Assembly: GCA_964454175.1 (NCBI GenBank)
Contig: CAYVSA010000011.1
Span: forward strand, 1 to 42,295
Direction of reading: 5' to 3'
Length of the DNA: 42,295 nt
Source: an uncultured Pseudomonadota bacterium
GTDB taxonomy: Bacteria; BMS3Abin14
Positions 7,648 through 42,295 of this stretch are shown here, piece by piece. The notes under the pieces are model-generated. The model was given only the letters and a program-made list of their open reading frames with translations, was not told where the DNA came from and made no database searches. A program made the translations under genes and the position numbers. Numbering within the stretch: position 1 is the first letter of the stretch; the number at the start of each line of letters is the position of its first letter.

Positions 7648-8721
7648 TTACGCAGTAGATCTGATTGGCAGAAAAACACTCACTTTCGCCCCGCCACTGT
7701 CACGATTACCGAGAACCAGACGCCCCCCGTGATTCTGGATTATCTGGTCACTGATGGCAAGTCCCAAACCCATTCCCTTTGGCTTGGTAGTAAAGAACGG
7801 AGCTGAAAAATCGTGGGAATCGAGATCGAAACCAGGGCCCGAATCCTCGATGTCCACCTGAACATTACCGATCTGCCCGTTCTGCAGTGAATGAGGGGTC
7901 CCCAGGGACGGGACCGAGGTCCTTATCCTGATGACAGTGCCAGGCGGCGATGCTTCCATGGAATTCTTGAGGAGGTTCAAAAAAATCTGGGTAATGCCAG
8001 CGCGGTCAGCCATTATGGTTGGCAAGCTGGGATCAAAGATTTTCTCGTAGGTTAGATCCGGGGCTTCTTCCCAGTGCCCGAGGAGATCCACTACCTCGTC
8101 CATCACTTCATGTATGTTGATCTCGGAAAAGGGGATCTCTTTTCTGGGCACCGCCGTGAGCAGGCTTTCGAGGAGCGAGTCAACCCTGTCCACTTCTCTT
8201 AAGATAATGTCGCAGTTCTCTGCAAGGGGGCTATCGTTTCCCAGTTCGGCGCGCAGAAGCTGTGTGGCTCCTTTTATCCCGCCAAGGGGGTTCTTAATTT
8301 CGTGGGCAATGCCGAGATTGAGGGTCCCAAGGGTAGCCAGGATGTCCGCCCTGCGAAAGGAGCGATCCAGTTCCTCGAGAACCGTGTTGTCCCTTGCCAG
8401 GAGCACCTGTCCCTGAAGGGAACCTTCGTTGTCCTCGAGTACGGATACACTCACTGAAAGGAAATAGACTTCCCCCTGAAAATTTTTCAGACTCATAGTG
8501 TGATGGGCTACAGACCGGCCCTCTTCCAGGGAGTTTGCCAGCAGTTTGTTCATCACTGGATTCAGGGGAAATATTTCCGCGGGGGTCTTTCCGAGGAGTG
8601 CATTTTCGGAGCGCCCGATCAGGCGCTCCCCCGCAGGGTTGAGCATTGAAAGCCGTCCCTCCCTGTCAAACAGGAAAAGTCCTTCAGTGAGGCTGGGTAT
8701 GAGGTTGTGGAGTGACGTCAA
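7648..8721 (-). CDS. ntrB: NtrB-like PAS sensor histidine kinase
   Basis: N-terminal PAS, H-box AHEIKNPL, N-box NLLKNS, DSGPG, PFFTTK and GMGLGL. Start overlaps the dusB stop. Confidence 0.88.
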   Translation of the reverse strand: MTSLHNLIPSLTEGLFLFDREGRLSMLNPAGERLIGRSENALLGKTPAEIFPLNPVMNKLLANSLEEGRSVAHHTMSLKNFQGEVYFLSVSVSVLEDNEGSLQGQVLLARDNTVLEELDRSFRRADILATLGTLNLGIAHEIKNPLGGIKGATQLLRAELGNDSPLAENCDIILREVDRVDSLLESLLTAVPRKEIPFSEINIHEVMDEVVDLLGHWEEAPDLTYEKIFDPSLPTIMADRAGITQIFLNLLKNSMEASPPGTVIRIRTSVPSLGTPHSLQNGQIGNVQVDIEDSGPGFDLDSHDFSAPFFTTKPKGMGLGLAISDQIIQNHGGRLVLGNRDSGGAKVSVFLPIRSTA

Positions 8722-9716
8722 ATCAGGTTCCCTTTTGTCATGTCTTCATCCCCGAGGCCGAAAAAGTCAACAGCCCGCTCGACTATCTCCCCGGGACTGT
8801 CTGATCTGTTGATAAGCGCCCTGAAGCCAGAGCCATCCGGAAGGCCTTTGCTATACCAGGCGAGGTGCTTTCGCAAGTGGCCCACAGCACGCCGGTCCGG
8901 CATGGACTCCAGTATGAGCCTGATGTGCAGGGCCGTAAAATACGGCCTGAGCTGGTCATCTCCGGGCACTGGTTCTCCGGCGATCTCCTTTAGTATCGAC
9001 GTAAACACCCACGGACGACCGAGAGAGCCGCGTCCGATAAGTAACCCGGCACAGTTTGTAATGTCAAATATCCGTCGAACGTCATCAGAGGTCCTTACAT
9101 CTCCGCTTCCCAGAACAGGGATGTCAAGCTCCTTTACCAGGCTGGCTATGGCTTCCCATTGGGCCTTTCCCGAAAAGCCCTGCACACGCGTCCGCGGATG
9201 AAGTATGATGGCGTCAGCGCCGTTGTCGGCCAGAAGCTTTCCGAAAGAAATGTAGTTCGATTCGCTGTCTGACCACCCCAGCCGGATCTTGACAGTGACG
9301 GGGACCCTCACGCTTTCCCTCACGGCCCTCACTATGGCCGATGCCTTCTCTGGCTCTCTCATCAGCTGTATGCCGCTCCCGCTCTTGAGGACTTTTTTAA
9401 CCGGGCACCCCATATTTATGTCGATAATGTCCGCCCCGGACCCGGCGAGTAAAACTGCGGCCTCGGCCATCTCCCCGGGTTCTCTTCCGAATATCTGGGC
9501 TGCCACAGGATGTTCCTCAGCGCTGAATGTCCCCATATCCTGTGTCTGCCGGTTCCTGAAACGCATTGCGCGAGCGCTTATCATCTCGGAAAAAACAAGC
9601 CCCGCCCCGCCAAGGCGGCACACTGTTCTGAAGGGGGTATTAGTTATCCCCGCCATGGGGGCAAGAGCGATCGGGGGGGAGATCTCCAGGTATCTCAGGT
9701 TCAGGATTCTTCGCAC
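8718..9716 (-). CDS. dusB: tRNA-dihydrouridine synthase DusB (NifR3)
   Basis: LAPMAGIT, IDINMGCP, PVTVKIRLGW, HPRT and IGRG..GRPW. Confidence 0.95.
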   Translation of the reverse strand: MRRILNLRYLEISPPIALAPMAGITNTPFRTVCRLGGAGLVFSEMISARAMRFRNRQTQDMGTFSAEEHPVAAQIFGREPGEMAEAAVLLAGSGADIIDINMGCPVKKVLKSGSGIQLMREPEKASAIVRAVRESVRVPVTVKIRLGWSDSESNYISFGKLLADNGADAIILHPRTRVQGFSGKAQWEAIASLVKELDIPVLGSGDVRTSDDVRRIFDITNCAGLLIGRGSLGRPWVFTSILKEIAGEPVPGDDQLRPYFTALHIRLILESMPDRRAVGHLRKHLAWYSKGLPDGSGFRALINRSDSPGEIVERAVDFFGLGDEDMTKGNLI

Positions 9717-11260
9717 ACCAGACTCCGGTCACGAAAATAATCAAAATCATCGTCATGGTCGGGAATGTGGCACCCGCGACAGACACTGGCAGCCGGCACC
9801 CTTATCAGGCGATACTGTTCAGGTGATGATATATGAAGGCCGCCCCTGCCGTGGCATGCCTCACACTGCACATTTACAAGATCCCCCCGCGGCGAATCCT
9901 GGGAATACCCGGTGGATCTCAGGTACCCTGTGACATGGCAGGGCAGGCAGTCGGGGTCGGCATCAGCATCCCTTGGCTTGAGCGTCGACAGGGCAAAAGC
10001 GTGCGCTGTGCCGGACCAGAACTCAAAGCGCCCCAGGTGGCAGTCCTTGCAGGGGGCCGCTCCTGTGTAACGGTCCCTTACATCTCCGGCGTCTTCCAGC
10101 AGTTGGGCATCCTTGCCGGTATTTTTCAGTTCTTTGCGGTATTTCCTGACCATGGAGGCGATCCTGCGATCGTCTCCGAACCTCGAAGTAAGGGATATCA
10201 TCGTGCCGTCATATCTGGTCAGGGAGGCGGCCTTTTGCAGGCTCTTGTCGAGGGCCTCCTGGTCTGAGGGAACCCCGGGCTGGGTCTTGCCTCCCTTGGC
10301 GCTGACCTGTATCTGCTCTCGGAGAAAATCGAGCTTTGCGCCATCGCTCCACCCGCGGTGTTCGCCGGAAAAGCCGAGCATCAGTCGACCCATGGCCCGG
10401 CCCTGGAAATAGCCAGCTACTATCAGTGTGTTGCCCACTTTCACGGGATTTTTCATCCAGGTCCTGCTCTTCCCTCCCACAATAATGTCTATCCCGTCGA
10501 CTTTTTTCGCGAGTTCCCGGTCATTGCCGAAACCGATGTGGGTGAGTGCGACTATCAGGTCGCTCTTCTTCCTGAGCTTATTAACGATGGCGGACGAAAC
10601 CGTGATGGGGTCGTCAACCCATGCGTTCGGAAATCGCTCCTCCATAAGGTTAACATCCACACTCCGGGATGTAAGTCCAAAGACACCGATCCTCATCTTC
10701 CCGAGCTTGACAATGATATAGGGGGTGTAGACAGGCTTGCCGTTTGTTGATTTGAGATTTGCCGAGAGAAGTCGAACTGAAGTATATTCCTCCAGATGGT
10801 CCAGATTCTCCCTGCCGATGTACAGGTCCATCTCGCCCACTGCCGCGGCCTGGTATCCCATAGCTTCCATCGATCTCAGGATCATCTCTCCCTTCTTCAC
10901 CGCTGTATTCAGGGCAGTGCCGGAAAGGACTTTCTGGGTAAACAGGTTGCCTGAATCAACGATCAGGGCTCTGGACCCGTCGTGGGTCTCCTGTTTGATA
11001 AAAGTAGCTCGACGGGGAAGACCCCCCATCTGGGCAGTCTTTCAGCCGCACGGGTCGATATATCCATCGATGTCCCCGGTGTAAAGTATCTTGATGGGTT
11101 TAAGGTCAGAAGGCACAGGGGCAGAGCAGCCGGCCAGTATAAATAAGAGGAGAACGAGCCAGAAGAGAGTTTGTGATATTATGGTCTCTGGTTTCTGGCT
11201 TGCCGCGTCGTATTTTCTCCTCTGCCGTAACGAAGACGGGTTTCTGGTTCCTGGTAACAT
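9701..11260 (-). CDS. Predicted selenocysteine-containing lipoprotein: UshA-like (degenerate metallophosphoesterase) domain plus tetraheme c-type cytochrome (519 aa, Sec at TGA 11044-11042)
   Basis: GGAGG-ATG 11260, lipobox LAGC, then ILYTGDIDGYIDPCG-TGA-KTAQ-MGGLPRRA in one frame. SECIS-like hairpin downstream of the TGA. Heme motifs CKDCH, CLPCH, CEACH, CRGCH. Confidence 0.85.
11011..11030 (-). promoter_or_regulatory. Bacterial SECIS element candidate
   Basis: mRNA reads UGA-AAGACUGCCCA (11 nt)-GAUGGGG-GGUCUU-CCCCGUC. The 11-nt spacing and GGUCU apex match the E. coli fdhF SECIS. Confidence 0.75.
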
Positions 11261-11345
11261 CGATCCTCCGTTTCATTCAGGATAACAGTCCAATGACCCG
11301 GGGTTGTTTATCCAAGCCCCGCCTTGATTTATAACCAGTATATAC

Positions 11346-11373: not shown

Positions 11374-12594
11374 CTACAACTCCCCCAACATAGCAGCAAC
11401 ACCACTTAGCTGCTCCTTGTCCGGCGGCGGGACCAGTACTATCGACCACCCGCCTCCCCATACTGTGAGCAGGGCACTCTGGAGATCTTCTGTCGGTACT
11501 GTCGCCCCGGTTTTCCAGTCTCTGGTCTGGAATTTCAGGATAACACGGGACCTTTGTTCCAGTCTTCTTTCCAGCCCCGAAAGTGAATCGTCTACCATTT
11601 CCAGCACCTCCGTAAATCCCATCTGGAGTTCGTCCTGGATCTGCCGATGGTAGAGCATGAGTGCAGAGTATGACGGTCCAACTTCCAGTGCCTGGCGAAG
11701 ATCCTGTGATAACCAGAGTCTGCCGTTGTCCGGATCGGTCACGGCTTCGTATGTCAGGTTCTGCGCCAGCTGGATTCCCGGGTTGACCGATCGTGCTGAC
11801 TGTTCCAGGCTTCGGGCGAGGGAGACCAGCCTGGACGTTTTCCATCGGACCCACCTGGAAAAGCGGCGCTTGGCTACCGTATAGGTCCTGCCATCATCGC
11901 CCGTCTTCGTCTGAAGGTGTCTGTAGGGCGGTACAAGGTCGCCTGTATCTTTCATGTATCTTGTTATGTTGGCCCTTGTAAAACCATCTCCCATGCGGGA
12001 AACCATATCGTCCTGCAGCAGGATACCATCCACGCCGGTCGCGGCAAGGTCTTTGAAGAGACCTGTGAGGTATGGCATTACATCGGAGCTGAGTATATCG
12101 AGGTCACCGCTTTGGTAGAACCTGCCTTCCGTTGTTGAGAATTTGACATCTGTAGACAGGTTCCCGGCAGAAAAAGCTGCCTTGCGAGTCACCATCCATG
12201 CGAATGCTTTCATGTTCAGCTCGTGGCTGATACGCACGAAGGGACCTATTATATCCATCAGCAGCGGCGCGCGGTCTGTTGGAAAATATACCCCCTCTGA
12301 GGGCATTGCGGGGCCGTCAGAACCGGCGGCCGGACCGTGAAGCCTGTCTCCTGTAAGGTGGAAGGCGCGGAGAATGATAGTGTCGAAACCAGCATTCTTG
12401 TAAGTCTCGATCTCACTTCGCAATCCCTCGATATCCCTGGATTCGAGAACGAGGATCTGGACGCCCTTCATCCTGGGGAAGTGTGCATCGATACTGGCTA
12501 TTCTGGCGGTGGCGGCACACCCGGAAACAAACAGGGCTGTTACCGTCAGGAAGAGAGCTGTTTTAACCGAATGCCGCTTCGAGGGCCTCATCAA
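11374..12594 (-). CDS. Lipoprotein with a PgaB C-terminal-like (GHL13/GH153-type) glycoside hydrolase domain
   Basis: Lipobox VSGC, GVYFPT, AFAWM and DLA..GVDGILLQDD motifs resembling the PgaB C-terminal barrel. No deacetylase domain. Confidence 0.65.
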   Translation of the reverse strand: MMRPSKRHSVKTALFLTVTALFVSGCAATARIASIDAHFPRMKGVQILVLESRDIEGLRSEIETYKNAGFDTIILRAFHLTGDRLHGPAAGSDGPAMPSEGVYFPTDRAPLLMDIIGPFVRISHELNMKAFAWMVTRKAAFSAGNLSTDVKFSTTEGRFYQSGDLDILSSDVMPYLTGLFKDLAATGVDGILLQDDMVSRMGDGFTRANITRYMKDTGDLVPPYRHLQTKTGDDGRTYTVAKRRFSRWVRWKTSRLVSLARSLEQSARSVNPGIQLAQNLTYEAVTDPDNGRLWLSQDLRQALEVGPSYSALMLYHRQIQDELQMGFTEVLEMVDDSLSGLERRLEQRSRVILKFQTRDWKTGATVPTEDLQSALLTVWGGGWSIVLVPPPDKEQLSGVAAMLGEL

Positions 12595-37854: not shown

Positions 37855-38757
37855 TCAGCCCTGGGCGATATGCTGAAGGTGTTCCATCAACCGTTGTGCA
37901 GTTGGGGATATACTTCGGCCCGAATGGATAATGATGTAGAAATTGCGGTCGATTTTCAGGCCCTCGATGTCAAGTCGCACTATTTCTCCCGATTTGATGT
38001 CTCTCCGGACGGTGATCTCCGAGAGAAAGCCAGCTCCCAGGCCAGCGGCAACACCTTCTATAACAGCCTGGGTACTACCGAGGGTGGCCTTCCAGTTCAG
38101 AGCGTCCGGGTCGACCCCGATCGCCCTGAGGGCTGCTTCAACCGTTTCCTGCGTGCCCGAACCCTTCTCTCTCCTGATAAGGGGAAGTGCTGCGAGGTCA
38201 GACAATGCAATGTTATGTTCAGCCAGGTCCTTTGCCAGTTCAGCTGGCGCCGTCAGGATGATCTCATCATTACAGAGCAGGTGTGAGTCGAGAGATTCAC
38301 CCATTGTGCTTCCGACCACCCCGATGGATATCTCATCCGATCTGACCTTCTCCCTCACAGATGACGAGTCGCTGACGTTAAGCGTGATATCCACATCCGG
38401 GTAGGCTGCTGTAAAAGATCCGAGCCATCTCGGCAACAGGTAAACTCCGGGCACCGTGCTCGCCTCAAGGACGATCTCTCCGCTGACCTCCCCCATGAAA
38501 TCCCGCACGGCCTCGACGGACTGGTCGCACATGTCGATTATCCTCTGGGCATAATCAACAAAAACCCTGCCCGCGGGAGTCAGGGTTACGTGCCTGCCGG
38601 ACCGGTCAAAGAGGCGTACACCCAGGTGTTTTTCCAGATTCCTGATGTGAGTGCTCAGGGTGGGCTGGGTTACGTTAATCTCCCTTGCGGCGCTGGAAAA
38701 ACCCCCGTATTTTTTTATCGCGCTCATCGCGCGGAGCTGGCGAAGATCGATGGTCAT
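37855..38757 (-). CDS. LysR-family regulator resembling the selenium-metabolism-associated/CysL-like group
   Basis: HTH FSSAA..I.VTQPTLS.HI..LE..LG..LFDR, ASTVPG.YLLP, RE.GSGT and LGSTQAV. ATGA overlap with metH. Confidence 0.85.
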   Translation of the reverse strand: MTIDLRQLRAMSAIKKYGGFSSAAREINVTQPTLSTHIRNLEKHLGVRLFDRSGRHVTLTPAGRVFVDYAQRIIDMCDQSVEAVRDFMGEVSGEIVLEASTVPGVYLLPRWLGSFTAAYPDVDITLNVSDSSSVREKVRSDEISIGVVGSTMGESLDSHLLCNDEIILTAPAELAKDLAEHNIALSDLAALPLIRREKGSGTQETVEAALRAIGVDPDALNWKATLGSTQAVIEGVAAGLGAGFLSEITVRRDIKSGEIVRLDIEGLKIDRNFYIIIHSGRSISPTAQRLMEHLQHIAQG

Positions 38758-41177
38758 GCGCTGCCCCCATCCACGATGAACCTGTTAAACAGCTCCACTG
38801 CCTCCGTAGCGTCACCGGCGTATCCGTCTGCCCCGATATCCTCGGCGAACTGCGGCGTGACCGCCGCGCCTCCCACTACAACGGGTGCGTCCAGGCCGGA
38901 TTCCTTTATCGCTGCAACCGCTTCTTTCATCTTGATCATTGTTGTCGTCATGAGGGCGGAAAGACCTATCGCGCTGCACTTTTCAGAAGCTGCTGTTTCA
39001 ACTATCTTTTCGGAAGGCACGTTCTTTCCCAGGTCCAGGACTTCGTAGCCGTGGTTCTCCAGCAGGGTGATCACTATATTCTTGCCGATATCGTGGATGT
39101 CTCCCTCCACGGTTGCTATCAGTATCTTTCCCTTTGAAGGAAGATCCATTCCCAGGAGGTTCTCCCTGATAGGCGCAAAAGCCGCCTTCATGGACCTTGC
39201 CGACAGTATTACCTGGGGCAGGAAGTACTCGTTCTTTGCAAACCGGCTGCCCACCTCCGACATTGCCGGAATGAGGATCTTTTCGCTGATGTCCAGCGGC
39301 TCCATCCCGGATCCCAGCAGCCTGGCAGACAAGTCCCCTGCTGCGTTATCGTCGCCCCTGACAACAGCTGAATAGAGCTGTTCCTCGTCTGAACTGTCAC
39401 TTTTATCTTTGGCCGAAGGGGCAGATGAAGCATCAGAGTATTTCCCGATGTAATCCAGTGCGTTAGAGTCCTGGTTCAGGATCACCCTGGACGCCGAGTA
39501 GACCTTCATTATTGTTTCGTTCAGGGGGTTTGCTATAGCTGCGCTCAGGCCTGACTGGGCGGCCATGGCCAGGAAAGCCGCGTTCAGGTTGTCCCTTGCG
39601 GGGAGCCCGAAGGACACGTTGCTGATGCCCAGCAGCGTGTTCAGGCCCAGCTTTTCCCTGACCATTCTGACAGCCTTTAGTGTCTCCTCCACGATCTCCT
39701 GTTCTGCTCCTGCCGAGAGTACGAGGCAGTCGATGAGGAGGTTGCGCGGCTCCAGGCCTTCCTGGACAGCTCTTTTCAGTATATTCTCGGCGATGGCCAG
39801 TCTTTTCTCGGCCGTGTCAGGGATGCCGCTTTCATCCAGGCACAGGCCCAGAACGGCTGCTCCATATCGCCGGGCCAGGGGAAGCACTGCTTTCAGGCTG
39901 CTCTTTTCGCCCGTCACCGAGTTGATGATGGGTTTGCCGTCAGATGCGGCAAGGCCGGCCTCAACGACCTCTGGCCTGGGGGAGTCGATGCTCAGGGGAA
40001 CCGGACAGGATTGCTGTATGAGATTGATCGCGCGGCCCATTACCGCAGGTTCATCGATCCCGGGAACGCCCACATTTACGTCGAGGAGCTCGGCCCCTGC
40101 CTCGATCTGCCTTCGGGCTTCTTCTGTGTAGACGCCAAGGTCGCCGGTTCTCAGGGCCTCGGCCATCATCTTCCTGCCGGTGGGGTTGAGCCGCTCGCCG
40201 ATGATCTTCAGGCCGCTGTTGCCGCCAACGAAGCACACGGACCCTCTGGAAGAAAGGCTGGTGGCTCCCGGGTCCGGAAGTATTCTCGCAACCGGTCTCG
40301 CACCGTGCTGGTCGATCTCCCCTCGCAGCCGGGTAATGTGGTCGGGTGTATTTCCGCAGCAGCCGCCGATGACTCCGGTTCCAATGGAGACCAGGTCCTC
40401 CACGATAGATGCGACATCTTCGGGGGAAGCCGGGAATACGGTCTTTCCGTCCACCAGTTCGGGAATTCCCGCGTTGGGCATGGAGACTAATGGCAACTCA
40501 GTGACGGCGGCCATACGGCGAAGTACATCCAGGACACCATCCGGTCCCAGTCCGCAATTTGTGCCAAGAGCGTCCACGCCCAGGGCGTCCAGTGTTACCG
40601 CGGCGGCCTCGGGTGACGTGCCCAGAAGTGTGCTCCCCGAGGGCTCGAAGGACATGAGGGCGGCAACCGGGATGTCTGAAACTGTTCTGGCAGCTATTAC
40701 TGCCGCTCTGAGTTCCTTGATGTCTGTAAATGTCTCAAAGAGTATGAGGTCAGCCCCTTCCAGGGCAGTGATCTGTTCGGCGTAGATCTCGTATGCTTCC
40801 TCGAAGGTGAGATCTCCCACGGGTTCGACAAACCTGCCGGTGGGGCCCACGCTGGCGGCAACCAGGACTTTGCTGCCCACGGCCTTTTTGGCAAGCTTGA
40901 CCGCAGCGGAGTTGATCGGGCCTACCTGGTCCTGCAGGCTGTAGGCGGCAAGCTTGACACGGTTCCCGCCGAAGGTGTTTGTCTCGACGATGTCCGAGCC
41001 TGCCTTCGCGTAGGCAAGGTGTACTGCGCCGACAGCATCAGGGTTCTCGAGGTTCAGCTGCTCCAGGCACTGCCCGTCCTTCAGGGCGGACACCTGCAGC
41101 ATGGTCCCCATGGCACCATCGCAGAGGAGTACCTTTTCCTGTATCAGCTCGCGGAATCTGCTCATTGTGCGCTCCAC
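38754..41177 (-). CDS. metH: Cobalamin-dependent methionine synthase lacking the AdoMet reactivation domain
   Basis: DGAMGTML, Zn ligands GTNC and GGCCG, pterin domain IIGERLNPTG, B12 motif GDIHDIGKN. Ends after the B12 domain. Alternative start ATG 41165. Confidence 0.92.
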   Translation of the reverse strand: MERTMSRFRELIQEKVLLCDGAMGTMLQVSALKDGQCLEQLNLENPDAVGAVHLAYAKAGSDIVETNTFGGNRVKLAAYSLQDQVGPINSAAVKLAKKAVGSKVLVAASVGPTGRFVEPVGDLTFEEAYEIYAEQITALEGADLILFETFTDIKELRAAVIAARTVSDIPVAALMSFEPSGSTLLGTSPEAAAVTLDALGVDALGTNCGLGPDGVLDVLRRMAAVTELPLVSMPNAGIPELVDGKTVFPASPEDVASIVEDLVSIGTGVIGGCCGNTPDHITRLRGEIDQHGARPVARILPDPGATSLSSRGSVCFVGGNSGLKIIGERLNPTGRKMMAEALRTGDLGVYTEEARRQIEAGAELLDVNVGVPGIDEPAVMGRAINLIQQSCPVPLSIDSPRPEVVEAGLAASDGKPIINSVTGEKSSLKAVLPLARRYGAAVLGLCLDESGIPDTAEKRLAIAENILKRAVQEGLEPRNLLIDCLVLSAGAEQEIVEETLKAVRMVREKLGLNTLLGISNVSFGLPARDNLNAAFLAMAAQSGLSAAIANPLNETIMKVYSASRVILNQDSNALDYIGKYSDASSAPSAKDKSDSSDEEQLYSAVVRGDDNAAGDLSARLLGSGMEPLDISEKILIPAMSEVGSRFAKNEYFLPQVILSARSMKAAFAPIRENLLGMDLPSKGKILIATVEGDIHDIGKNIVITLLENHGYEVLDLGKNVPSEKIVETAASEKCSAIGLSALMTTTMIKMKEAVAAIKESGLDAPVVVGGAAVTPQFAEDIGADGYAGDATEAVELFNRFIVDGGSA

Positions 41178-41202
41178 TCGATCAAATTGATCTCGATCCG
41201 TC

Positions 41203-41222
41203 CCATAGACAGATTCGATAGG
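41203..41222. promoter_or_regulatory. Candidate LysR-type operator upstream of metH-lysR
   Basis: ATAG-N7-CGAT (41205-41219) fits T-N11-A with partial dyad symmetry, next to TGCTATACC on the minus strand. Confidence 0.45.
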
Positions 41223-41268
41223 TATAGCATGTTTTTATTGAAAGTAGAGCATTAGAAAATGGAAAATC

Positions 41269-41391
41269 TGGCGATGGGCAGGCTATGGGCGATTGGCTAT
41301 AGGCTATAGGCTGTAAGCTGTATGCTTGAGGCTATGGGCTATGGGCTATGGGCTATGGGCAATGGGCAATAGGCAATAGGCAAAAGGCAGG
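41269..41391. repeat. Long heptamer tandem tract (GGCTATG/GGCAATA variants)
   Basis: ggctatg x4, ggcaatg, ggcaata x2, plus degenerate copies upstream. Confidence 0.9.
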
Positions 41392-41428
41392 AGCCATTGG
41401 ATAAGTAACGAGGTGTTGAGGTATCGAA

Positions 41429-41713
41429 GTGTCGATGTGTCGAAGTTTACTTGTCCCTGGTATGTTGGCAGGGATTGGGATTCAAATTAAAGCTGAATTA
41501 ATAGATAAGAATAAAAAAGAGGATATTCAAAGCGGACAAGCCATTAGCGTACCAATTAACTGGGATATTGGTTTTACAAAGTACCTAGGATTTGGTTTTG
41601 CTGATGATGGTTCAAGTATAAACATTAATATCGGAATCGGCGCGGGATCACCTATTATTCTTCTCTTCCTCTTGAAGGGGAAATTGGAATTAATTACAAT
41701 TGGGACGGAATAA
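41429..41713 (+). pseudogene. AT-rich ORF fragment, possibly the C-terminal tip of a polymorphic toxin
   Basis: Gly/Ile-rich beta-like peptide with low GC, upstream of a small membrane gene and an RHS core remnant. Identity inferred from context only. Confidence 0.3.
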
Positions 41714-41751
41714 TGCCTTAGTAATATCATTCAATGGGATGAGGTGCAAAA

Positions 41752-42096
41752 ATGAATATTGTCTGTAGTGAAAAGTCGGACAATACAATTAGCCATGATT
41801 TAAAGATATATTGGGTAAAATTGTTTTTTGTTTTCTTAGTTTCGTGTCTGTTATTGTTTGGATCGATGTTTTTAATAAATACATTCGATAAGCCAGCTAA
41901 ATTAATCTATGTAGTATTCATTCCGTGTTTAATTATTTTCACCATACAAATGTCACAGATAAGCAATATAAAATGTCCTGCATGTGGACAGCCAGTGTTT
42001 GTTAAACATAGCATCGGTAAGTTCCCATTATTTGTATATCCCTTTGGTCTTTTTGGCACAAGGTGCCCTCATTGCAATTGTGAAAATAAATCTTGA
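41752..42096 (+). CDS. Small AT-rich membrane protein, two TM plus CPAC...CPHC zinc ribbon (possible immunity protein)
   Basis: GAGGTG SD, two hydrophobic helices and two CxxC motifs. Confidence 0.65.
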   Translation: MNIVCSEKSDNTISHDLKIYWVKLFFVFLVSCLLLFGSMFLINTFDKPAKLIYVVFIPCLIIFTIQMSQISNIKCPACGQPVFVKHSIGKFPLFVYPFGLFGTRCPHCNCENKS

Positions 42097-42103
42097 GCAG
42101 ACT

Positions 42104-42184
42104 CACTTCTTCCACGCTGATTATCTTGGATCAGTCAGGCTTGTCACTGACGTTACAGGTGCAGTAGTATGGTCTGAGCGTTAC
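42104..42184 (+). pseudogene. RHS repeat-associated core remnant
   Basis: Hand translation HFFHADYLGSVRLVTDVTGAVVWSERY matches the RHS core pattern H.D.LGS....TD..G.VVW...Y. It breaks off where (D)PFG is expected. Confidence 0.8.
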
Positions 42185-42185
42185 A

Positions 42186-42269
42186 GAAAAATCTGTGGGG
42201 TCAAACCTCACTTTCTTACCTTTTATGGAAAAATCTGTGGGGTCAAACCTCACTTTCTTACCTTTTATG
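42186..42269. repeat. Exact 42-bp tandem duplication
   Basis: GAAAAATCTGTGGGGTCAAACCTCACTTTCTTACCTTTTATG at 42186-42227 and 42228-42269. Confidence 0.95.
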
Positions 42270-42295
42270 TGTTTATACCGACTGCTATATTAATC

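Follow-up and report, generated by a model that had tools for sequence, protein, structure and literature searches.

Closest described systems

The subject of this report is a gene on the minus strand of a 42,295-nucleotide (nt) stretch of DNA from an uncultured Pseudomonadota bacterium (GTDB lineage Bacteria; BMS3Abin14), comprising positions 1 to 42,295 of the forward strand of contig CAYVSA010000011.1 (assembly GCA_964454175.1) and hereafter called the window. The gene encodes an UshA-like protein with four heme-binding motifs, and it contains an in-frame TGA codon that is very probably read as selenocysteine (Sec, U); the best inference for its function is that of a periplasmic chalcogen (sulfur or selenium) oxidoreductase. 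UshA-like selenoproteins have been catalogued since 2008, when the selenoproteome study of the Global Ocean Sampling data, in the part of its text that was available, counted “COG0737, UshA-like, CxU” as one of the major marine selenoprotein families and named the family, together with SelD and FdhA, as being without a recognised Cys-based redox motif (PMC2398784). The accessible portions of two reviews (PMC9312934 and PMC13188914) also list the UshA-like family, the later one giving the accession NF041198, and both list in addition a second UshA-like family, NF049981, as well as ExtKL and an octaheme tetrathionate-reductase-type selenoprotein. A literature search for a function of UshA-like selenoproteins, or for their fusion to a heme domain, turned up only catalogue entries.

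The closest mechanistic precedent is MccSep/ExtKL (GSU2937-2936) of Geobacter sulfurreducens, characterised in the available text of a 2026 paper as a periplasmic pentaheme selenoprotein polysulfide reductase with a His/Cys-ligated heme beside an essential Sec (PMC13510729). Like the predicted product of the window gene, MccSep is a periplasmic multiheme c-type selenoprotein, and gene callers break its gene in two at an in-frame UGA; a Cys and the Sec act together in it, and a SECIS-like (selenocysteine insertion sequence-like) hairpin lies within ~30 nt of the UGA. The differences, as far as the same source describes MccSep, are substantial: it has five hemes and the window protein four; the Sec of MccSep belongs to a C-terminal Ig-like domain (D-G-U-P), whereas that of the window protein would belong to the CGU loop of an N-terminal 5'-nucleotidase fold; and MccSep forms soluble tetramers, whereas the window protein is a predicted lipoprotein. 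No match of the window protein to the MccSep/ExtKL model NF040886 was found at E <= 0.1. It seems, by analogy, that the resemblance would lie in a possible working mode and not in family membership, and MccSep can be considered a plausible mechanistic template. The MccSep paper, in its accessible part, cites His/Cys heme enzymes such as TsdA and SoxAX as precedent (PMC13510729). The window protein possibly shares His/Cys ligation with these sulfur enzymes, through C516 or C71, and possibly sulfur chemistry, but no sequence relation to TsdA or SoxAX was found.

Two groups of well-known proteins resemble the separate halves of the window protein. UshA, CD73 and SoxB share its N-terminal fold and the linker helix (profile E-values of 1e-37 to 1e-23). 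These hydrolases keep the metal ligands and the catalytic His, which are replaced in the window protein; a cytochrome domain takes the place of their C-terminal substrate-binding domain, and the hydrolase models score far below their cut-offs. The second half resembles cytochrome c554 of Nitrosomonas europaea (PF13435; PDB 1bvb and 1ft5), which also has four CxxCH motifs and whose first ~95 residues are matched by the sequence, including the TAHA distal-His motif. In contrast to c554, the heme domain of the window protein is fused to an enzyme-like scaffold, and its last distal ligand would come from the C-terminal tail, where the candidate is a Cys in the window clade, i.e. the window protein and its close homologues.

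Membership in the UshA-like (seleno)protein family

As was found by the comparison with NCBIfam, the 519-residue translation matches NF041198 “UshA_like_PCGU, UshA-like (seleno)protein” with 351.5 bits (cut-off 275). Residues 36-508 correspond to profile positions 4-518 of 519, so that the heme domain lies within the profile, and D69-P70-C71-G72-U73 corresponds to the P-C-G-U/C motif that follows the first beta-strand. All 20 members of one alignment (A1) match NF041198 as well. The gene, which standard gene calling splits, is thus a member of a catalogued family. The first-pass annotation, which was made from the letters of the window, had assigned the protein to a recognised UshA-like CxU/CxC selenoprotein family, and both the NF041198 match and the listings in the accessible text of PMC2398784, PMC9312934 and PMC13188914 bear this out. 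A specialist would not find the gene itself surprising, and since NF041198 already describes the whole architecture, hemes included, its novelty is limited.

The window protein shares with the remaining NF041198 members the full-length match, the P-C-G-U motif, the interchange of Sec and Cys, the UshA-like N-terminal domain and the four-heme C-terminal domain. The window clade nevertheless forms a divergent branch, with ~24-33% identity to the fetched members that have a Cys codon (Cys-type) or a TGA (Sec-type) at the Sec position. It has GGLPRRA where other members have GGLARRA, with its SECIS-like hairpin placed over the codons for GG-L-P; D105 and H264 have been lost, and a C-terminal Cys replaces the His of the other clades. 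Two of the loci contain family members in tandem: a Cys-type copy followed by a Sec-type copy at L013:2789-5191, and two Sec-type copies at L037:4835-7254.

Gene structure and export signal

The following features of the gene and its 5' part were delineated.

9701..11260, minus strand: full coding sequence for an UshA-like (seleno)protein precursor of 519 residues, with a predicted Sec at codon 73 (reading frame and NF041198 match)
11265..11269, minus strand: Shine-Dalgarno-like GGAGG, 4 nt before the ATG at 11260 (sequence reading)
11126..11260, minus strand: predicted signal peptide, residues 1-45, in which a basic n-region precedes the hydrophobic stretch LFWLVLLLFI and the lipobox LAGC, C45 being the predicted lipidation site (pattern match)
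11042..11050, minus strand: TGC GGC TGA encoding C71-G72-U73, the P-C-G-U motif of the family (C71, G72 and C/U73 invariant in 68/68 full-length members)
11011..11030, minus strand: SECIS-like hairpin made up of 5' arm GAUGGGGG, 11030-11023, GUCU loop, 11022-11019, and 3' arm UCCCCGUC, 11018-11011 (folding and family comparison)

The minus strand reads, in one frame, GAC CCG TGC GGC TGA AAG ACT GCC CAG ATG GGG GGT CTT. The TGC of C71 occupies 11050-11048, the GGC 11047-11045 and the TGA 11044-11042. This lone TGA separates a 72-residue open reading frame (ORF; 11260-11042) from a 442-residue ORF (11029-9701), whose ATG at 11029 stands four codons past the TGA in the same frame. If the TGA is read as U, a single frame of 519 residues extends from the ATG at 11260 to a stop TGA at 9703-9701. 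TGA is the usual stop codon in the window, ending 23 of the 35 ORFs, the selenoprotein gene itself among them, and consequently the code is not globally reassigned.

The two parts of the frame complement each other. The hydrophobic stretch of residues 32-45 ends in the lipobox L42-A43-G44-C45 (11137-11126), and this tetrapeptide conforms to the lipobox pattern [LVI][ASTVI][GAS]C. The N-terminal fragments of five relatives all carry a lipobox, LAGC in three of them and PAGC or MVSC in the others, and the frame 5' of the TGA encodes a signal peptide in most Sec-type loci. Taken alone, the 442-residue ORF begins with MGGLPRRATF and is without a signal peptide. Residues 56-61, which also lie upstream of the TGA, form the first strand of the predicted fold. 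The first-pass annotation had proposed the in-frame joining of the two ORFs by one TGA, an upstream part that brings the Shine-Dalgarno sequence, the lipobox LAGC and the first strand of the fold, and a downstream part devoid of an export signal; each of these points is reproduced by the coordinates and comparisons given here.

Evidence for selenocysteine at codon 73

The genomic comparison covered 80 related loci from many phyla among the matches listed, all of them distant relatives with 23-43% identity. A C-G-[C/U] site was found in 67 of them; the other 13, in which the motif scan detected no site, were set aside. Among the 67 loci listed, the codon in question is TGA in 31 and a Cys codon (TGC or TGT) in 36, in the same alignment column. 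The set of 68 full-length family members used below consists of 32 Sec-type and 36 Cys-type sequences, and C71, G72, C/U73, G79, G80 and G104 are invariant in it. The first-pass annotation had suggested aligning homologues to see whether Cys occupies the TGA position. It does so in all 36 Cys-type loci and in 19 of the 19 full-length database homologues of alignment A1 (20 sequences; 24-30% identity to the window protein), where C71 is also conserved in every case.

The phylogeny supports repeated exchange of the two residues. On a FastTree tree of the 68 full-length members the Sec/Cys label changes at least 6 times, and the well-supported branches alone force at least 3 switches; for example, the Sec-type L007 is sister to the Cys-type L079.

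The close clade consists of 44 database homologues with 42-67% identity, for which the evidence for TGA comes from the ends of ORFs in the protein database only. Forty-two of the 44 begin at [M/V]GGLPRRA (the first residue corresponding to M78), which means that they are truncated at one common point. A query with the 72-residue fragment retrieved five small ORFs (53-59 residues) in relatives, all ending in ILYTGDIDGYIDPCG followed by a stop (YIDPCG).

Bacterial SECIS elements have a stem beginning ~11 nt past the UGA and a G early in the apical loop. The window hairpin has 8 base pairs (bp) and a folding energy of -11.5 kcal/mol, and begins 11 nt past the UGA. When the stretch 13-40 nt past the codon was compared across the family, its best perfect hairpin had a mean energy of -9.9 kcal/mol at 33 Sec-type sites versus -6.3 kcal/mol at 39 Cys-type sites (Mann-Whitney p 3.6e-5), despite the lower guanine and cytosine (GC) content of the Sec-type stretches; in this unanchored comparison the Cys-type set held three spurious motif sites, and three sites without a hairpin were scored as 0. 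The apical loop begins with G in 33/33 Sec-type sites versus 9/39 Cys-type sites. When the sequences were anchored on the GG codons of GGLxRR, a stem of at least 6 bp was found at either of two fixed positions in 25 of 29 Sec-type sequences versus 1 of 34 Cys-type sequences; longer loops prevented the anchoring of three further Sec-type and two further Cys-type sequences. The hairpin class of the window, with the loop over the GG-L codons, also occurs in the Sec-type loci L030, L042, L059, L065, L066 and L077, and the CCCC arm of the window hairpin is provided by the Pro of GGLPRRA, which is clade-specific (41/43). These comparisons strongly support a predicted SECIS-like hairpin class that is specific to UGA-bearing genes.

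An alternative is that no recoding occurs and the TGA is a true stop, the locus being a pseudogene, a sequencing error, or a pair of genes for a 72-residue lipopeptide and a 442-residue cytoplasmic protein. It would agree with the split made by gene callers, with the appearance of 44/44 close homologues as truncated ORFs and of the five N-terminal fragments as separate small ORFs, and with the absence of Sec machinery from the window. However, a TGA at the same codon in 31 distant loci of many phyla and in the close clade, and a downstream hairpin tied to the TGA-bearing genes, would not be expected of a true stop. Nor would it be expected that the 442-residue part, with its four heme motifs, has no export signal of its own while the 72-residue part supplies both the signal and the first beta-strand. 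In addition, a search of the minus strand between the two ORFs found no terminator-like site. This alternative is already close to refuted, and the comparative data strongly support the recoding of UGA73 to selenocysteine.

N-terminal 5'-nucleotidase-type domain

10091..11098, minus strand: calcineurin-like / 5'-nucleotidase-type fold and linker helix, residues 55-390, with the degenerate dimetal ligands D-I-D, G-N, G-E-M-D and G-G-K (AlphaFold2, Foldseek, alignment)

The AlphaFold2 model, built with 119 sequences, has a mean pLDDT (predicted local distance difference test) of 90.1 and a pTM (predicted template modelling score) of 0.86. A Foldseek search with its N-terminal part retrieved CD73 (6xuq, E 3.9e-24) and UshA (1ush, E 4e-22), and Pfam gave no Metallophos match at E <= 0.1. 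A direct alignment to human CD73 pairs D63 with D36, D65 with H38, N105 with D85, E143/M144 with N117/H118, H241 with H220 and K264 with H243. The earlier reading of the metallophosphoesterase ligands as degenerate (DID, GN, GEMD and GGK) agrees with this alignment, in which H241 is retained.

The extent of the degeneration differs between clades. In the window clade (43 sequences) N105 is present in 41, His at position 241 in only 10, and His at position 264 in none. D63 occurs in 35 of the 68 full-length members. The former ligands are retained in Sec-type versus Cys-type sequences as follows: D105 in 19/32 versus 8/36, H241 in 22/32 versus 5/36, and H264 in 19/32 versus 3/36. The hydrolase site is, judging from the alignments, degenerate in the family and most completely so in the window clade.

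It might be supposed that the protein has remained a hydrolase (either a SoxB-like thiosulfohydrolase or a nucleotidase) to which hemes have been attached. The SoxB model TIGR04486 is in fact the second-best NCBIfam match (92.2 bits, residues 76-296), and SoxB structures match the family profile with E 6e-23. These 92.2 bits are nevertheless far under the SoxB cut-off of 550, the UshA model reaches 52.3 against a cut-off of 600, and Metallophos stays undetected in Pfam at the threshold given above. The catalytic His and most of the metal ligands are replaced, and the cytochrome domain stands where 5'-nucleotidases and SoxB have their C-terminal substrate-binding domain, which is missing. A surviving hydrolase activity is thus highly improbable.

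The main rival to a chalcogen oxidoreductase is a Cys/Sec metal site, in which C71 and U73, together with the leftover D63, D65, E143, D145 and H241, would bind Fe, Ni, Cu or Mo/W-S, and the hemes would act as a wire. Sec at a metal centre occurs in [NiFeSe] hydrogenase and formate dehydrogenase. The CGU loop comes immediately after motif I of the dimetal fold, and the former ligands D105, H241 and H264 are kept more often in Sec-type than in Cys-type relatives. D145/E is found in 68/68 full-length members, and a further alignment (A3) shows N168 in each of the 118 homologues that it aligns with the window protein. Against such a site stand the loss of ligands in the window clade, with N105 in 41/43, no His at 264 and H241 in only 10/43, the presence of D63 in only 35/68 members, and the rarity of His at position 65 (3/32 Sec-type members). 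Furthermore, the surroundings of 24 Sec-type loci showed no genes for metal insertion or maturation. A metal-centred role in the window protein seems unlikely.

C-terminal tetraheme domain

9704..10075, minus strand: cytochrome c554-like tetraheme domain, residues 396-519 (PF13435, PDB 1bvb)
10051-10037, 9949-9935, 9865-9851 and 9781-9767, minus strand: CxxCH motifs, residues 404-408, 438-442, 466-470 and 494-498 (sequence)
10003-10001 and 9835-9833, minus strand: H420 and H476, candidate distal ligands (invariant in 68/68)
9713..9715, minus strand: C516 in the tail motif V-C-x-E, candidate distal heme ligand (clade-specific Cys)

PF13435 (Cytochrome_C554) is the only Pfam domain seen in the protein (57.2 bits, cut-off 20.8, residues 404-471), and the last 130 residues match cytochrome c554 (PDB 1bvb) with E 1.6e-12. 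Both results are in line with the four CxxCH motifs and the c554-like C-terminal domain already recognised in the first-pass annotation. The four motifs, H420 and H476 are invariant in 68/68 full-length members; a count by regular expression gave four CxxCH in 32/32 Sec-type and 32/36 Cys-type sequences and three in the remaining 4.

The tail position is variable in a clade-dependent manner. In the window clade it is Cys (C516) in 43/43 close homologues. A motif-based assignment of 75 distant database homologues gave 67 with His, 4 with Cys and 4 with neither, and a tail His stands at an alignment column one or two from C516 in 62 of the 68 loci. This tail swap, which the first-pass annotation does not mention, may represent a His-to-Cys switch of the distal ligand of one heme, and the conservation of C516 suggests a His/Cys heme in the window clade. 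H420, H476 and the tail His/Cys are the only conserved candidate distal ligands for the four hemes. Cytochrome c554 has three six-coordinate hemes and one five-coordinate heme, heme 2, which is without a distal ligand; three candidate ligands for four hemes would fit this scheme.

Proposed function

Taken together, the data are best explained by an NF041198 lipoprotein in which Sec73 is carried by a dead hydrolase scaffold and connected to hemes, with a redox role in chalcogen (sulfur or selenium) chemistry; the probability of this overall explanation is estimated at roughly 0.6. After export by the Sec pathway and lipidation at C45, the protein would face the periplasm. The dead phosphoesterase domain would act as scaffold, and the catalytic redox centre would be the invariant C71-G-U73 loop that it presents. 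Three of the hemes would be six-coordinate, with H420, H476 and, in the window clade, C516 as distal ligands, and the fourth, without a conserved distal ligand like heme 2 of c554, would be the likely partner of the CGU loop. The substrate attacked by the Sec would be of the S-S, S-Se or oxyanion type (for example polysulfide, thiosulfate, tetrathionate or selenite); C71 would resolve the selenenyl-sulfide, and the hemes would exchange electrons with the periplasmic cytochrome pool. The first-pass annotation had suggested a membrane-tethered periplasmic oxidoreductase coupling a Cys-Sec pair to a heme wire, perhaps for S, Se or N compounds, and the data are compatible with such a role.

A more specific form of this proposal can be put forward tentatively, although it is on balance doubtful: the CGU loop of the dead 5'-nucleotidase may close over the open face of the five-coordinate heme, with a second heme ligated by His/Cys through C516, giving a heme-Cys-Sec centre that would have arisen independently of MccSep.

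Several observations weigh against a Sec-dependent chalcogen oxidoreductase. Searches of the 42-kb window for selA, selB, selD and tRNA-Sec found none of them, the only tRNA in the window being tRNA-Gln. Rfam returned no SECIS family, either for the whole window at gathering thresholds or for 10800-11300 at E <= 10, and tRNA-Gln was its only real match in the window. The 76-nt fold around the UGA is unremarkable (z = -1.38), with another pairing at minimum energy; the contrast between Sec-type and Cys-type genes is the more informative test. The block of residues 71-80, which holds the CGU loop, is modelled less well than the rest (mean pLDDT 72). In other Sec-type clades the metal site is partly kept (D105, H241 and H264), which leaves room for a metal-centred site there. 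A comparison of 89 neighbouring ORFs at the 24 Sec-type loci with Pfam revealed no conserved partner gene, and the choice of substrates follows analogy alone.

A further alternative concerns the loop itself. In a pairwise HMMER alignment, the residue opposite U73 is the first Cys of the CD73 loop “KC...RCMGG”, and the Cys/Sec loop may have a structural ancestor there; this Cys forms the loop disulfide of CD73 (C51-C57). The window protein could accordingly be only a lipid-anchored tetraheme electron shuttle in which C71-x-U73 is a structural, non-catalytic selenenyl-sulfide comparable with that disulfide. The alignment of U73 with the CD73 Cys would suit such a shuttle, as would the want of conserved partner genes pointing to a pathway. 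Against it stand the invariance of C71, G72 and C/U73 in 68/68 members while the surrounding former active site drifts, and the swapping of Sec and Cys at least 3-6 times at one position, a pattern typical of redox-active residues. Moreover, Sec is, to our knowledge, costly and essentially always catalytic. We consider a purely structural role of the pair very unlikely.

Genomic context

The gene lies between a gene for a lipoprotein resembling the PgaB C-terminal part (11374-12594) and dusB (8718-9716), with housekeeping genes around. The upstream neighbour (11374-12594, minus strand) encodes a predicted lipoprotein of 406 residues (...FVSGCAAT), whose likeness to PgaB is weak (63 bits versus a cut-off of 321.9). 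The earliest possible start of dusB overlaps the stop of the selenoprotein gene by 16 nt. A terminator-like GC-rich hairpin with a T-run occurs at 9599-9618 (minus strand), ~85-100 nt past the selenoprotein stop and in the 5'-terminal part of the longest dusB ORF. The start codon actually used by dusB may lie farther downstream; alternatively, the site may attenuate read-through into dusB.

A LysR-type regulator encoded at 37855-38757 (minus strand) matches NF040786 “selenium metabolism-associated” with 274.7 bits (cut-off 250), and its gene shares 4 nt with the end of the MetH-like cobalamin methyltransferase gene at 38754-41177. The match is a hint, of an indirect kind, that the genome uses selenium. 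When TGA codons were read through in a scan of the window for further selenoprotein genes, the only results were frames running on into neighbouring genes. The sole match of the selB model in the window was the GTPase domain of TypA, below the cut-off. At ~42150-42295 (plus strand) exact peptide repeats were observed in two frames, KNLWGQTSLSYLL twice and GKICGVKPHFLTFY twice, which points to a ~42-nt direct DNA repeat at the window end; the region 41200-42100 gave no family matches.

The neighbours of the Sec-type genes are mostly housekeeping ones, such as DciA, LptD, HU and ABC ATPases. They are not conserved between loci, and no pathway can thus be read from the context. Three of the 24 Sec-type loci (L048, L059 and L065) adjoin large multiheme cytochromes with NapC/NirT N-terminal, c7/c3 and MtrC-like domains.

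L048:2414-5776, L059:2577-4823, L065:2889-5072 and L065:7573-9540: large multiheme cytochromes (Myxococcota or Thermodesulfobacteriota metagenome-assembled genomes)

Significance

In a large protein database all close relatives of the window protein appear as ORFs of 436-446 residues without an export signal or as orphans of 53-59 residues. Such truncated deposits make the protein look like a cytoplasmic “nucleotidase” or a “multiheme cytochrome”. The family is widespread, and its C-G-U/C motif is always kept together with the four hemes. After the MccSep result of 2026, as far as the accessible text describes it, NF041198 is an obvious next candidate for heme-selenium chemistry in the sulfur/selenium cycle (PMC13510729). 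The His-to-Cys swap in the tail provides a concrete residue for testing, and the clade-specific C-terminal Cys, together with the comparison with MccSep, makes the family a reasonable experimental target. If the proposed heme-Cys-Sec centre is real, it would represent a second class of selenium-dependent oxidoreductases in the periplasm, acting on polysulfide, thiosulfate or selenite; this class would be widespread, spanning Acidobacteriota, Eisenbacteria, Krumholzibacteria, Fibrobacterota, Desulfobacterota and Myxococcota.

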